Virus genome (UHGV): UHGV-0186582
DNA from: a virus
DNA: 39,992 nt
Direction: 5' to 3' (one strand)
In this document: positions 21,406 to 33,152 of the stretch, in pieces
How positions within the stretch are numbered: position 1 is the first letter of the stretch
How the letters are laid out: each line of letters opens with the position of its first letter
Position numbers and translations under genes: made by a program
The notes under the pieces: generated by a model
Database searches by the model: none
The model's input: only the letters and a program-made list of their open reading frames with translations
What the model was told of the DNA's origin: nothing

Positions 21406-21924
21406 TCACTTTGGCAGTCCGGGGATCGATATTTGCGCCTGCTGCTCAAGCCTTTTGATTCTTGCTATGAGTTGCGGTTTTTTGATCCTGCCCCAGCGGT
21501 TCAGCAAGCGTCCTGACATACTGGCAACATCCTTTTCCTTCATGAACTCCAGCATTAACTCGTTGTGCTCTCTTTGGTATGAGTGAGCCATCTCCATCAG
21601 CCTGTCACGCATCCAATTAAATGCTTTGATAAACGCCTCTTTGATGGCGGCAGCTTTTTTGCCGGTAAACGACATGATGATGTACATCGCACCGTCTTTG
21701 GAAATTTCATATTCAACATACTGATTACCCTTGTGTTCATAGGTAACCCGCGAAAAGTTGCTGGTTAGAAATTCATCCGAACAGTCTAGCTTTTCGATTT
21801 TCTGAATGATGTGGTGATGCTGCTTGTCGAAGTAAGCTGCTACCTTGCGGGAGGTTGTGATCACGCGATCACCAGAAACAACCACCATGTCCCGGAAATC
21901 GAGATTAGCCAATTGATGATTCAT
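21406..21924 (-). CDS. rha: Rha-family phage regulatory protein
   Basis: N-terminal motif VVVSGDRVITTSRKVAAYFDKQHHHIIQKIEKL matches recalled Rha signature; lies between lysis and terminase as in P22-like phages. Confidence 0.5.
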   Translation of the reverse strand: MNHQLANLDFRDMVVVSGDRVITTSRKVAAYFDKQHHHIIQKIEKLDCSDEFLTSNFSRVTYEHKGNQYVEYEISKDGAMYIIMSFTGKKAAAIKEAFIKAFNWMRDRLMEMAHSYQREHNELMLEFMKEKDVASMSGRLLNRWGRIKKPQLIARIKRLEQQAQISIPGLPK

Positions 21925-24038: not shown

Positions 24039-24534
24039 GGCTTTTAACAGCAACATGCTTAACTTTCTCAACACGTTTACGCATTTTGAAAGCATTTTGC
24101 ATCGGCTGGTATAAAACAAATAATGACGCTTTCAGGATGTCGTCAATTTCGTTTCTACAGGTTGCCAGTGAAGGTTTTCTCCATCCCTCGCCACCACGTC
24201 CACACATCTTGCGTGGCTTTGCAGTCGCGTGATAGTAGGATGCAATTGCTCGCTTAGATGAACCATGAGCGTAGTAGCTGAGGAGGATGCTAAAGGCTTT
24301 CTTGTCAATGTACATGACGGAATCGACGACCTGAGAAATCAACATTCCATCATCATCATTACACATTGGCCTTGTCATAACTCTTCCCGGCTCTACGCTC
24401 TCCATGAACTTCGCTATTACGCTGCTCATGCGCTTTTCCAGGCGGCCTGAATAAACCCATGCGCCCCACAGTTCAAGCCAGCCATTCAGCCAATCGTGCT
24501 GTTCTTTGGTGAGGTTTAGTTCTCTTATGCTCAT
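24016..24534 (-). CDS. Late-gene antiterminator Q-like protein (non-lambda type)
   Basis: 172-aa ORF between ninH and the pR'/lysis region; not similar to lambda Q as recalled; assignment by position and promoter context. Confidence 0.5.
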   Translation of the reverse strand: MSIRELNLTKEQHDWLNGWLELWGAWVYSGRLEKRMSSVIAKFMESVEPGRVMTRPMCNDDDGMLISQVVDSVMYIDKKAFSILLSYYAHGSSKRAIASYYHATAKPRKMCGRGGEGWRKPSLATCRNEIDDILKASLFVLYQPMQNAFKMRKRVEKVKHVAVKSLDMQLAI

Positions 24535-24719
24535 CGTCTTCCCCTCTTGCCCTGTTTGACCATCAGGACGCCGTTAACTATTACGTGACGCTCGCCTTTG
24601 CTGTCTCGTTTGTACTTGAGCACTGTTCCTCTTGCGCAGGAAAGCATCCTTGCCACTTCGGTCTGATTGCCTCGTGTCTGGATAAGAAGCTCTGGTATCG
24701 TTTGAATTGTGGCGTTCAT
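24531..24719 (-). CDS. ninH: NinH
   Basis: 62 aa; IPELLIQTRGNQTEVARMLSCARGTVLKY resembles lambda NinH (IPDMLVEAYGNQTEVARRLKCSRGTVRKY). Confidence 0.7.
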   Translation of the reverse strand: MNATIQTIPELLIQTRGNQTEVARMLSCARGTVLKYKRDSKGERHVIVNGVLMVKQGKRGRR

Positions 24720-25078
24720 ACGCTCTCCAGTTCGGTGATTTTTATTCCAAGCCTTCCGCCTGGTACTTTCACGCCACGAATTACGCGAATGTCATCGAAT
24801 TGCTCGTCGTCTTCCGCAAATCCGGCGTGGATAAGGGAGTCGAGTAAACCTTTCAGGATGTTGTCGAGGTCGCGGCGGCGGGAGTCTGGAACGTCTGCGA
24901 TGACTTTGATGCGGAGTCGTGATTTGGTGAAAATGTCTAACTTAAGTTGGCGGATGATTTGCTGAACGTCTTTTCGGTATTTCTGGCCTTTATCGCTGAT
25001 GTAGTATTGACTCCCCCGTCTTCGCCAGTAGGTATTCAGCGACGGCGGGTATGGAAGCACAAACTGATATTCGTTCAT
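24716..25078 (-). CDS. rusA: Holliday junction resolvase RusA
   Basis: 120 aa; LPYPPSLNTYW...DRRRRDLDNI...GGRL motifs as in RusA. Confidence 0.75.
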   Translation of the reverse strand: MNEYQFVLPYPPSLNTYWRRRGSQYYISDKGQKYRKDVQQIIRQLKLDIFTKSRLRIKVIADVPDSRRRDLDNILKGLLDSLIHAGFAEDDEQFDDIRVIRGVKVPGGRLGIKITELESV

Positions 25079-25353
25079 TGGACAAACACCCTCCCATTGT
25101 TAACCAATTTTTTAAGGGTAAGCACAATGGCCCGATCCATTTCAGCCCTTCGCTCTTCCCTGCTCATATCTCTCCCATTATCAATTCTTGAATGACAATC
25201 AACACATAGCGCAGCAGTAAGGCAATCATCTACTTTAATCCCAACCCCCTTCCCTTCATTTCTGTGAGCGGCCTGAACTCCGTATCTTCCGCAAAGAACG
25301 CAAAATTCAATATCCCTGACTGCCTGAAGCCATTTTTTGCTTCTAAACATCAA
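25075..25353 (-). CDS. YbcO-like (DUF1364) Cys/His-motif protein, putative nuclease
   Basis: 92 aa with CVLCGRYGVQAAHRN ... CVDCHSRID pattern. Confidence 0.45.
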   Translation of the reverse strand: MMFRSKKWLQAVRDIEFCVLCGRYGVQAAHRNEGKGVGIKVDDCLTAALCVDCHSRIDNGRDMSREERRAEMDRAIVLTLKKLVNNGRVFVQ

Positions 25354-25852
25354 TCCCCTCCAAAAAACGTCGGTACGCTGATTTGTTTTTTATGTTGCAC
25401 ACTGTCTGCGCACAAACACCAAATTCTTTGGCTATATCTCTGTATTTGCCTTTTGATTTATATATTGATTTCACTTGTTCTGGCGTTAGTTTGCAGAAGT
25501 GATGATTAAACCCATGAACAAGCAATCCGGAATCAAATCCATGTTTCGCATTTTCTGTTCGCGTTACCCACTCAAGATTTTCAACTTTATTATTAAGTTT
25601 ATTTCCATCCTTGTGATTAACTTCCGGTTTGCCATCTGGGTTATCAATAAATACTTCTGCAACAATTCTGTGAACCATTTTATATGATGGTCTTTTCCCG
25701 CCACCTGGATACAGACCGACAAATGCATATCCTCCTGGTTTAATGCCATGAGATAATTTTTTTGATTTACGGCATGAAATGATGTCTCCATTTTCATTTA
25801 CTTTATATATACCCTCAAAGCCGGGGATATCTTTTTCTTTAACATCACTCAT
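25343..25852 (-). CDS. Free-standing HNH homing endonuclease (NUMOD4 + HNH_3 motifs)
   Basis: 169 aa; GFEGIYKVNENGDI (NUMOD4-like) and HKDGNKLNNKVENLEW (HNH); gene is visibly AT-rich; start overlaps ninF stop (ATGAGTGA). Confidence 0.75.
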   Translation of the reverse strand: MSDVKEKDIPGFEGIYKVNENGDIISCRKSKKLSHGIKPGGYAFVGLYPGGGKRPSYKMVHRIVAEVFIDNPDGKPEVNHKDGNKLNNKVENLEWVTRTENAKHGFDSGLLVHGFNHHFCKLTPEQVKSIYKSKGKYRDIAKEFGVCAQTVCNIKNKSAYRRFLEGIDV

Positions 25853-26015
25853 CGTCTTCTTCCTCGTACATTGAGCTATTCGGATCGCTCATCAGTTCTG
25901 CGCAGCAGTGCTCACACACGTTAACTTCCAGCACATGCAGCTTTTGACCGCAATTAGCGCACGTTAAAGCCCGCTCGACGCTTTCTTGTTCGTAACTTCG
26001 ATTTGGGTCAATCAC
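25845..26015 (-). CDS. ninF: NinF
   Basis: 56 aa below ORF-track cutoff; GTG start; (V)[55 protein letters not shown] near-identical to recalled lambda NinF. Confidence 0.7.
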
Positions 26016-26194
26016 CTTGTTTTCCTCGCACGTTCTCTAAGCCACCGGATATCCCACAGGTGAGCCGTGTAGTTGAAGGTTTTTACGTCAGATTCTTTTG
26101 GGATTGGCTTGCGTTTATTTCTGGAGCGTTTCGTTGGAAGGTATTTGCAGTTTTCGCAGATTATGTCGGTAATACTTCGTCGCTGTCGTCTCAT
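26012..26194 (-). CDS. ninE: NinE
   Basis: 60 aa from internal ATG overlapping methyltransferase stop (ATGA); [52 protein letters not shown] matches recalled lambda NinE. Confidence 0.75.
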
Positions 26195-26720
26195 GCCGCC
26201 CTCCTGACGCCCTGCCCGATCGCCATCAATGCCGCTTTGGATACGGTAGTAAACATCCGTCGAGGACTGATGAACGGTCGCCAAATCAGCAGCATGGAAC
26301 CTTTGCTGTTTCCCTTCTTCTCCAGCCCTGTCGATGGTTCGATAAAATTAATCCGTCCATCAGTGATAATACGAACTTCGTCAACACTCTCCAGAGCCTT
26401 GCTGAACCATCCGACAGACATATCCTCTGGCACAAGCATCACTACCGTCTGTCGCTGTTGTATGCACTGCTCAGCGGCTTTTTCCACCCACGGCCTGATA
26501 TTGCTGTACGGTGGGTTATTCCAGATTGCACCGTGGCTTACCCACTCAGAATTGAGCGCGTCGTCGGCCTCAGTTAGCCAGTGAGCGCACAGAGCATTTT
26601 TGTCGCTCGCTGCCGAATCCAGCCAGAATCCAAACTCAATATCCAGTGCATCAAAAAGCCAAAGCGGCGTTCGCCAGCAGTCCTTGTCGTGTGCTGGCGT
26701 ATTTGATTTGATAGTCACTC
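26191..26720 (-). CDS. Phage N6-adenine DNA methyltransferase (Dam-like, NPPY motif)
   Basis: [13 protein letters not shown]...WNNPPYSN motifs; probable start is GTG at 26720 overlapping ninB stop with AAGGAG RBS (track ORF extends to TTG 26754). Confidence 0.7.
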
Positions 26721-31598: not shown

Positions 31599-31615
31599 GG
31601 CATAAACAACAGAGG
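31586..31615. repeat. Repeat B copy 1 (30 bp exact, second copy 32821-32850)
   Basis: GGCCTTTATTTTTGGCATAAACAACAGAGG identical at both sites, each ending in the AGAGG RBS of a paralogous gene. Confidence 0.85.
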
Positions 31616-31620
31616 TGGAT

Positions 31621-31881
31621 ATGACCGTAGAAAGAATGAAAAGGCCGTGGAGTGTTGTTGGCACTGGATTCAACGATGATGGTGTTTATGTCACGTTTGA
31701 CGATACAACCATACATCGAGGTGATTTGAGATTGATGGAGGCAGCTCCTGATTTGCTTGAAGCTCTGCAAGCGATGCTAAACAAGGCATACAAGCAAAGC
31801 TGGAATGACCATTATCCTGATGAAGTATCGAAAGCACTGTCAGCAATTAGCAAAGCTATTGGTGAAGATTATTACGATTGA
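31621..31881 (+). CDS. Hypothetical protein, paralogue of 32856-33152
   Basis: Shares AAPDLLEALQ...AISKA.G motif with second copy; ATG 31621 after repeat-B RBS. Confidence 0.5.
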   Translation: MTVERMKRPWSVVGTGFNDDGVYVTFDDTTIHRGDLRLMEAAPDLLEALQAMLNKAYKQSWNDHYPDEVSKALSAISKAIGEDYYD

Positions 31882-31886
31882 GGTTA

Positions 31887-32156
31887 ATGATGAAATTCAA
31901 ATTGAACGATGAAGTTAAATGGTCAAGCTCATCAAACGGTGTAACGAAGGTAAAAATCGGGTTTATCGTCGAGGTGATTCCTCCTGGTGTCAACGTAAAA
32001 AAATTCGAACTAGGCCGTCTGCTAGATGCACCTGGCCTTCCGAGGAAAGAAGAGAGCTATATAGTTTGTGTAGGTCCAAGACCCGGATCTCGTGCCAAGC
32101 CAAAATATTACTGGCCGCGAGTTAATAACCTGCGTCACTTACACGATGACAAATAG
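31887..32156 (+). CDS. Hypothetical protein
   Basis: ATGATG start with GAGG RBS; ~90 aa. Confidence 0.45.
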   Translation: MMKFKLNDEVKWSSSSNGVTKVKIGFIVEVIPPGVNVKKFELGRLLDAPGLPRKEESYIVCVGPRPGSRAKPKYYWPRVNNLRHLHDDK

Positions 32157-32504
32157 AAGTGAGTATCCTTGTTTTACTTTTCCAGCTTATTACGATTGAG
32201 GAGAGACGGAAATGATAGATGGGAAATCTGTGAAGATATTTGACGAGCAAGCTACACTGCCTTGATTTTATGTTAGGGATATTTCTTCGTTCTATGACGA
32301 ACCAACATTTGATATTTTATTTGTCGATGATGATGGTATATGTCGGTATTCGAACGATATTTTTAATTCAGAGTAAGAAGCCATCAATTACGCAGAGAAA
32401 TGCAATGCCAAAACAGCCGACTATGAACGCTGGGATTACTGCAAACATAATCGCTGGATTCTGACTCAACACATTGAAGCCAAATCCTCCTAGCTCGCAA
32501 TCAC

Positions 32505-32550
32505 AAAATGAAATTAGGCAGCAAACCACTTATTTGAGGTGAGATATGGA
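32505..32550. repeat. Repeat A copy 2
   Basis: See copy 1. Confidence 0.8.
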
Positions 32551-32615
32551 AGAAGAATTTGAAGAGTTCGAAGAGCATCCGCAGGATGTGATGGAACAAT
32601 ACCAGGACTATCCGT

Positions 32616-32816
32616 ATGACTACGACTATTGATACAAATCAATGGTGTGGACAATTCAAGCGATGCAATGGATGCAAGCTGCAATCGGAATACATGGTTA
32701 AGCCTGAAGAAATATTTCCTGTAATGGAAGATGGGAAATATGTCGATAAATGGGCAATACGAACGACGGCAATGATTGCCAGAGAACTTGGTAAACAGAA
32801 TAACAAGGCTGCCTGA
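32616..32816 (+). CDS. Hypothetical small protein (Cys-motif CGQFKRCNGC)
   Basis: 66-aa ORF; its start overlaps a 28-codon acidic mini-ORF (32546-32632) so the true coding unit is uncertain. Confidence 0.35.
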   Translation: MTTTIDTNQWCGQFKRCNGCKLQSEYMVKPEEIFPVMEDGKYVDKWAIRTTAMIARELGKQNNKAA

Positions 32817-32855: not shown

Positions 32856-33152
32856 ATGGAATTTAAAGGTACTGAAGGCAAGTGGGAAATAATGATGGAT
32901 GGCGATGAGATTAAAATAATCCAGGCAGACTCACTTGAAAATGGCGCAGGCTGGCGTTCGTATATTGCAATCTGTGAGGAAGTTCAATGTATTGAAGATG
33001 CCAATCTAATAGCGGCAGCACCTGACCTTCTCGAAGCACTTCAGTTATTACTTAAGCAATCCAAAAATAGAACAACGACAACATATCCAGAATGGTATGG
33101 AGCTGTTAATAAAGGTCTTGCAGCAATCAGCAAGGCTCTGGGAGGTGAATGA
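32856..33152 (+). CDS. Hypothetical protein, paralogue of 31621-31881
   Basis: 98 aa; IAAAPDLLEALQLL...AAISKALGGE. Confidence 0.5.
   Translation: MEFKGTEGKWEIMMDGDEIKIIQADSLENGAGWRSYIAICEEVQCIEDANLIAAAPDLLEALQLLLKQSKNRTTTTYPEWYGAVNKGLAAISKALGGE

Follow-up and report, generated by a model that had tools for sequence, protein, structure and literature searches.

A free-standing I-HmuI-like HNH gene in the nin region of a lambdoid phage is probably a selfish, optional passenger

Free-standing homing endonucleases have been well studied in virulent T-even and SPO1-like phages, but have hardly been examined in temperate lambdoid phages, in which mosaicism is usually ascribed to generic recombination. 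I-HmuI of Bacillus phage SPO1 is a homing/nicking endonuclease, in which Asp74 is a metal ligand and in which we take His75 to be the general base and Asn96 a metal ligand. The T-even phages carry free-standing homing endonucleases, for example SegF/SegG and MobE, which spread by ‘intronless homing’, and for the T4 enzymes cleavage of the neighboring gene’s allele is documented. Among lambdoid phages, gene 31 of epsilon34 consists of the N-terminus of a resident gene fused in frame to an HNH homing endonuclease (PMC2629481). Our literature search for homing endonucleases, the nin region and HNH returned only this epsilon34 paper, in which the gene described below does not appear, and a search for NUMOD4 and lambdoid phages found no paper.

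Here, we analyzed an HNH gene in the nin region of the virus genome UHGV-0186582, of which the whole stretch of 39,992 nt is referred to as the window. The gene is already known by generic annotation, in RefSeq and in the records of phages Dewey and Louie. The PGAP/RefSeq name is ‘NUMOD4 motif-containing HNH endonuclease’ of E. coli (e.g. WP_001000608.1), and the RefSeq E. coli proteins, Dewey_CDS0060 and the Louie homologue are 98–99.8% identical to the product of the window ORF and occupy the same position between ninF and a gene for a 91-aa protein. We found no paper that discusses these entries, and the announcement of phages Huey, Dewey and Louie does not mention the HNH gene.

The genes of this region lie on the minus strand in the order ninB, dam (a Dam-type methylase), ninE, ninF, HNH, the 91-aa YbcO-like gene, rusA, ninH and Q; thus, the surrounding genes follow an HK97/P22-type nin order rather than, in the strict sense, the lambda order given in a preliminary description of this DNA. 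The HNH ORF is uninterrupted (169 codons, with an ATG start) and is coupled to both of its neighbors. The overlap of its start with the stop of ninF, which had been described before, measures 8 nt: ATGAGTGA holds both the HNH ATG (25852–25850) and the ninF stop (25847–25845). Similarly, the ATG of the 91-aa gene overlaps the HNH stop within ATGTTTAG. The AT-richness that had set this ORF apart from the nin genes around it is confirmed by calculation; its G+C content is 36.5% (GC3 27.6%), compared to 49.3% for the window and 49–52% for the flanking ninF, ninE, dam and rusA, with an intermediate value of 43.8% for the 91-aa gene. Among stretches of 510 nt, it is the richest in A+T of the whole window, and G+C is this low in just 0.08% of all 510-nt windows. 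The second lowest patch (∼38% in 510-nt windows) is found in the early-left region at ∼32121–32660, among short ORFs.

Because no Rfam family matched at E ≤1 in positions 24500–26500, and because each end of the ORF is marked by a start and a stop codon that overlap and belong to separate genes, we consider the HNH gene to be free-standing and reject an intron- or intein-encoded homing endonuclease. No signal for a promoter or terminator of its own was found above shuffled expectation in or beside the ORF, and the direct or inverted terminal repeats at the cassette borders were just matches of 10–17 nt, which is the chance level. The coordinates of the relevant features are collected in Table 1.

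Table 1. Features of the HNH locus and of related alleles (window coordinates unless another locus is named)
Feature	Coordinates	Strand	Evidence
NUMOD4-HNH_3-HTH endonuclease gene, I-HmuI-like, free-standing, 169 aa	25343..25852	-	ORF, Pfam, PHROG, 1U3E match, AF2 model, G+C
Codons for N79-H80-K81, start of the beta-beta-alpha-metal motif	25609..25617	-	1U3E alignment
HNH start / ninF stop overlap, 8-nt ATGAGTGA	25845..25852	-	alignment; blastn
HNH stop / 91-aa gene start overlap, 8-nt ATGTTTAG	25343..25350	-	right breakpoint versus HNH-free RM8082 allele
ninF, upstream flank	25845..26015	-	PF05810, E 1.8e-10
rusA, downstream flank where HK97 homology resumes	24716..25078	-	PF05866, E 2.4e-16; blastn
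91-aa zinc-finger gene, distant YbcO/DUF968-like (HNH-superfamily), constant partner downstream of HNH	25075..25350	-	weak Pfam; PHROG 131 E 6e-31
Decayed HNH copy, 59-aa ‘NUMOD4 domain-containing protein’	L005 2213-2392 (E. coli AH19B041)		
Ectopic HNH copy	L006 2713-3260 (E. coli QML220601)		
ybcO-stub N-terminal extension, ~15 codons, MANLRKEARGRECQV and variants	L007 4001-4045, L008 4001-4045, L019 1465-1509		

The NUMOD4-like and HNH motifs initially noted in the protein both correspond to Pfam domains that score above their cut-offs. HNH_3 (PF13392) covers residues 58–102 (E = 6.2e-11, 42.2 bits, cut-off 24.8), and NUMOD4 (PF07463) lies N-terminal to this nuclease domain at residues 7–48 (E = 1e-5, 26.1 bits, cut-off 23.4). 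PHROG 59, ‘HNH endonuclease’, matches the protein with E = 1.6e-50, while no NCBIfam model matches either the HNH protein or the 91-aa protein. The sole significant solved relative by sequence is I-HmuI (PDB 1U3E; E = 9.3e-19, residues 6–121). Likewise, when the PDB was searched by Foldseek with an AF2 model built on 55 homologues (mean pLDDT 94.5), the sole significant match was 1u3e, with a probability of 1.00. Since this alignment spans 165 of 169 columns, the model predicts the entire I-HmuI architecture: an N-terminal beta-sheet module for DNA binding (NUMOD4), a beta-beta-alpha-metal HNH core and a C-terminal helical/HTH part. The protein thus matches I-HmuI both by sequence and by predicted fold.

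We examined the catalytic motif in the alignment to 1U3E, in which H80 aligns with I-HmuI His75 and N101 aligns with Asn96. These residues, together with N79, N92 and H104, are invariant in 55 of 55 homologues, down to 35% identity, so that the HNH catalytic residues are intact and conserved in a protein with the I-HmuI fold. The position of I-HmuI Asp74 is occupied by Asn79, and because Asn79 is itself invariant in this family of 55 sequences, the substitution is probably a family-typical variant. We rejected a role as a component of a defense system, as PADLOC matched the HNH protein to generic ‘HEase’ homing-endonuclease models alone and the 91-aa protein to none.

We think it fairly likely that this free-standing gene is a homing-endonuclease-type gene of the I-HmuI / HNH_3 kind, an optional passenger of lambdoid prophages that spreads horizontally by homing with co-conversion. 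That it is a selfish mobile gene, as had been proposed in the preliminary description, is supported by its family, fold and intact motif, by its sporadic distribution, its breakpoints and its linkage to the 91-aa gene, and by a diversity lower than that of its flanks, as well as by its presence in diverse backbones, its foreign composition and the decay of one copy. The evidence on distribution is as follows. Of 425 phage records having the same flanking nin DNA, only Dewey and Louie have the HNH ORF (99.8% identity), and the next phage relatives have ∼40% protein identity. The ORF is found in 34 of 5,426 complete E. coli genomes, every time in a prophage nin region. The number of ninF flank carriers among these genomes is ∼1,712, based on matches to the ninF half of a test query, and thus ∼2% of comparable regions carry the HNH gene; it is not a feature of all related nin regions. 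Moreover, the carriers have very different backbones, from the window, the HK97-like prophage of E. coli 042 and STEC299 to the rexAB-bearing Nord1 and to Dewey and Louie, which are P22-like podoviruses (PMC12243541).

The HNH gene and the 91-aa gene differ from the genes around them in the extent of their diversity. Over 13 carrier loci, the mean identity to the window is 99.4% for HNH and 99.7% for the 91-aa gene, but is 95.4% for ninF, 97.1% for ninE, 97.3% for rusA and 97.6% for ninH. The cassette is therefore younger than the diversity around it.

The preliminary description had the HNH gene inserted between ninF and the ybcO-like gene. The position is correct, but a clean insertion between residents is not what we found when the junction was compared in related lambdoid phages, a comparison that yielded both HNH-bearing and HNH-free nin regions. 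The homology with HK97/mEp043 in blastn stops at window position 25839, at the ninF stop, and restarts at the start of rusA, 25078, such that the segment with the HNH and 91-aa genes (25079–25838, 760 nt) is found in place of the 999-nt roi + gp66 (ybcO) of HK97. In the alignment, the ATG embedded in the ninF stop is the common start of the HNH gene, of HK97 roi and of mEp043 gp60. Since roi and gp60 start at the identical ATG, the slot that follows ninF is a mosaic boundary or hot spot of a general kind, and since this left breakpoint is common to the unrelated roi and gp60 cassettes, ordinary lambdoid recombination could explain the arrival of the HNH gene.

These observations fit an ordinary mosaic module, an explanation that we consider rather unlikely. 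By this explanation, the HNH and 91-aa genes form one of several cassettes that replace each other between ninF and rusA in lambdoid phages, through recombination, homologous or illegitimate, at the borders of genes; the nuclease would contribute nothing to its own spread, and might be inactive or have a different function. In addition to the ATG at which roi, gp60 and HNH all start and the exact restart of homology at rusA, many different occupants of this slot are found in the 425 phage records, and no clean empty site was found (see below). However, generic swapping of cassettes leaves unexplained the fusion to ybcO at one codon (∼15) in several lineages, the sharp delimitation of the HNH ORF alone in the comparison to RM8082, the strict conservation of the catalytic residues, and the lower diversity of the cassette than of both flanks in 13 of 13 loci.

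The comparison to RM8082 relies on an HNH-free allele of the 91-aa gene, 98.9% identical, which is found in three E. coli genomes (RM8082, DETEC-S565 and NCTC9104), in each case directly after a diverged ninF. Relative to the window, the homology of this allele sets in at 25341, which is 2 nt after the HNH stop codon, and continues on through rusA. Taken jointly, the HK97 and RM8082 comparisons reduce the segment that carriers alone possess to the HNH ORF. We also constructed a synthetic empty site, in which the window ninF allele is joined to the window 91-aa allele; no single-piece match to this query was found in the 5,426 E. coli genomes, and all full-coverage matches contain the HNH gene. 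We found no immunity polymorphism between the HNH-linked and HNH-free forms of the 91-aa gene, as the RM8082 allele differs by one internal residue only, and because the two alleles are nearly identical, no target can be inferred inside the 91-aa gene.

Two E. coli genomes contain altered copies of the gene. In AH19B041, an in-frame deletion of 330 nt took out the HNH core and the HTH, and the remnant has kept its overlaps with the stop of ninF and with the 91-aa start. The copy in QML220601 is ectopic: the order is ninF, roi, the first ∼29 nt of ybcO, a 29-nt duplicate of the ninF 3′ end, HNH, the 91-aa gene and rusA, with a short ORF, MANLRKEARGGRRWMM*, ahead of the HNH start. Thus, the unit moved into an HK97-type region together with a scrap of its former ninF neighbor.

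A piece of ybcO is also found within the coding sequence of some HNH relatives. The proteins P0002, P0004, P0009 and P0021–P0023 carry an in-frame N-terminal extension, the ybcO stub, and in L007 and L008 the first 45 nt of the HNH ORF are 89–93% identical to the first 45 nt of HK97/mEp043 ybcO, while the remainder of the stub-bearing genes is unrelated to ybcO. We conclude from this identity that ybcO was interrupted after codon 15 and that its start was captured by the endonuclease ORF. A peptide of the form ‘..L.K.ARGREC(Q)V’ heads most proteins of the HNH clade. The joint ∼29 nt into ybcO in QML220601 is a second, independent joint, and these two joints, at nt ∼29 and nt 45, suggest a break or nick at these positions, so that a break site is predicted in the 5′ end of ybcO.

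To describe the neighborhood of the gene in other genera, we consider relatives at increasing distance. Those with 59–76% identity are found in prophages of E. coli, Salmonella, Klebsiella aerogenes, Citrobacter koseri and Superficieibacter, where the upstream neighbor varies (ninF, an 81-aa ORF, a 100-aa ORF, a 658-aa cytosine methylase or DUF1367) and the HNH + 91-aa pair is followed by rusA or Q. A homologue of the 91-aa gene lies directly downstream, with its start overlapping the HNH stop, in all 18 of the 18 loci in which HNH is at least 60% identical. The HNH and 91-aa genes co-diverge into matching three clades, and every 91-aa clade also has HNH-free members (RM8082, SEN22 and HK225). 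The more distant full-length relatives (46–58% identity) have an invariant C-terminal ‘GVCAQTVCNIK’. In Haemophilus, the HNH relative adjoins a YbcO gene (YbcO-HNH-RusA); in Neisseria it adjoins a gene for a Ref-like RecA-dependent nuclease/DUF968 protein (RusA-Ref-HNH-NinB), and in an IMG/VR contig a Ref-like gene (HNH-Ref-Q). Overall, a small HNH-superfamily nuclease gene (YbcO, 91-aa or Ref-like) is found within 300 nt of 25 of 25 full-length relatives, in a pairing that spans Enterobacteriaceae, Pasteurellaceae and Neisseriaceae, but is found at none of 118 distant HNH_3 loci (<45% identity bin). The adjacency in all 25 cases and the ybcO stub point to the 5′ end of the small nuclease gene as a candidate entry or target site.

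We noted two further features of these related nin regions. In the Salmonella prophages L010–L013, which have the order methylase, HNH, 91-aa gene, Q, the gene for the 658-aa DNA cytosine methylase (PF00145; 2028–4004) is directly upstream of, and overlaps, the HNH homologue. A second HNH_3 or ‘HNH endonuclease’ gene lies between ninB and ninD/ninF in L008 (2996–3544) and in L017 (2717–3298; Salmonella phage SEN22 gene 45), and the nin region may therefore host several homing-endonuclease-like passengers.

The 91-aa protein, for which the PGAP name is ‘hypothetical protein’, carries the zinc-finger pattern CxxC...H...CxxCH. Its Pfam scores are below the cut-offs for both YbcO (PF07102; 18.9 versus 29.9 bits) and DUF968 (19.3 versus 27.8 bits). 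HK97 gp66, in contrast, is a genuine Pfam YbcO (147 bits, E = 1e-43), to which the 91-aa protein is 27% identical. Judged by these comparisons, the 91-aa protein is to be regarded as a distant YbcO relative, not as a Pfam YbcO member by gathering threshold. The slot of this gene is filled by the bona fide YbcO of HK97 in related phages, and the 91-aa gene looks like an undescribed sister family of YbcO.

The constant presence of this neighbor raises the possibility, which we consider quite unlikely, of a two-gene module, with the NUMOD4-HNH enzyme (which probably nicks DNA as I-HmuI does) acting jointly with the small nuclease of the HNH superfamily encoded next to it. Nicks might, for instance, be turned by the small nuclease into breaks that provoke recombination, or the two enzymes together might be directed against the DNA of competing phages or of the host. 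A module of this type would fit the 18 of 18 overlapping pairs, the 25 of 25 full-length relatives (Haemophilus and Neisseria included) compared to 0 of 118 distant loci, and the co-divergence of the two genes. On the other hand, the HNH gene is absent beside the small nuclease in ∼12 of 14 phages with the 91-aa family and in most YbcO-bearing phages, and PADLOC matched generic homing-endonuclease models only. Furthermore, both the partner family and the gene order change between clades, and thus a positional or target association fits better than a protein-protein partnership. We are similarly doubtful of a specific form of this idea, that constant adjacency reflects a functional partnership in which the I-HmuI-like, site-specific nickase marks a site and the neighboring P1 Ref-like or YbcO-like nuclease, with host RecA and NinB/RusA, makes a recombinogenic break; if true, the partnership would be a two-component homing or recombination-targeting system in temperate phages.

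A phage nuclease domesticated to serve the life cycle of the phage, in the way that the HNH protein gp74 of HK97 assists terminase, would account for the intact, conserved catalytic motif and the coupling of the gene into an essential operon, but is barely credible given that the gene is missing from ∼98% of close relatives that have these flanks in common, lies far from the terminase genes, and tolerates deletion of the nuclease domain in one lineage. An HNH gene associated with terminase is present in HK97, E. coli 042 and Dewey; we looked for a second HNH gene of this kind in the window, and rejected the candidate, a 172-aa ORF at 21406–21924 (minus strand), which encodes a Rha / ORF11CD3 regulator. 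This regulator gene lies between the lysis cassette and the gene for the small terminase subunit, a position at which HK97-like relatives (E. coli 042, Nord1), and Dewey as well, have a gene for an HNH endonuclease. Elsewhere in the window, the early-left ORFs at 31615–31881 and 32856–33152 (plus strand; 88 and 98 aa) have in common an ‘AAPDLLEALQ...L(N/K)...’ motif and a similar C-terminal ending, ‘SKA(I/L)G(E/G)’, and appear to be diverged paralogues.

If the gene spreads by homing, as we favor, the following sequence of events can be proposed. The HNH gene, which abuts the 5′ end of the small YbcO-like nuclease gene upstream of rusA, would be read from the early-right (pR) operon and expressed via translational coupling, as its start and stop would be coupled to the ninF stop and the 91-aa start. 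During lytic growth or co-infection, the enzyme would nick or cut relatives that lack the HNH gene at a specific site, most likely in the initial ∼45 nt of a ybcO-type gene or where ninF meets the ybcO-like gene. With the HNH-bearing genome as the template, recombinational repair would then transfer a copy of both the HNH gene and the adjacent 91-aa gene to the recipient, a process that would amount to intronless homing with co-conversion of a flanking marker. In this manner, the gene would spread among phages with common ninF and rusA homology, with the 91-aa gene dragged along. The enzymatic activity, the target site and the enzyme-driven spread are inferred. Several points count against homing: the Asn79 in place of Asp74, the lack of a perfect empty site with identical alleles on both flanks among the genomes searched, the left breakpoint in common with roi and gp60, and the 91-aa gene with no visible immunity polymorphism. 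In addition, the co-divergence of the HNH and 91-aa genes over long distances is also compatible with a useful two-gene module that is inherited vertically and stably.

The locus provides a tractable E. coli system in the form of the phages Dewey and Louie and of prophages (that of E. coli 042, for instance), with a natural set of HNH-plus, HNH-minus, decayed and ectopic alleles. Two details are new: the gene is constantly paired with YbcO/Ref-like genes, and a ybcO stub has been captured in relatives. They make the target testable, with a concrete prediction (the 5′ portion of ybcO-type genes or the junction of ninF with a YbcO-like gene). With this locus, one can address whether the exchange of nin-region modules owes something to site-specific endonucleases; should homing not be confirmed, the gene would still be an ordinary HNH passenger that has already been annotated.

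Compared to the described systems, the window protein has the three-part layout of I-HmuI and conserves the general-base His and the Asn metal ligand, but overall identity is 28%, I-HmuI has Asp74 where the window protein has Asn79, and I-HmuI is encoded inside a group I intron of a DNA polymerase gene whereas the window gene stands free between protein genes. In this last respect it resembles the T-even enzymes: an optional endonuclease gene lies between conserved genes and is sporadic among relatives, and a neighboring allele is co-inherited, as co-conversion predicts. It differs from these in that the Seg enzymes are GIY-YIG proteins, in that its host is a temperate lambdoid phage, and in that cleavage of the neighbor’s allele, documented for the T4 enzymes, is for the window protein a prediction. 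Finally, epsilon34 gene 31 represents an N-terminal capture like that in the ybcO-stub::HNH relatives, but belongs to the early-left operon, and the gene captured is another one.
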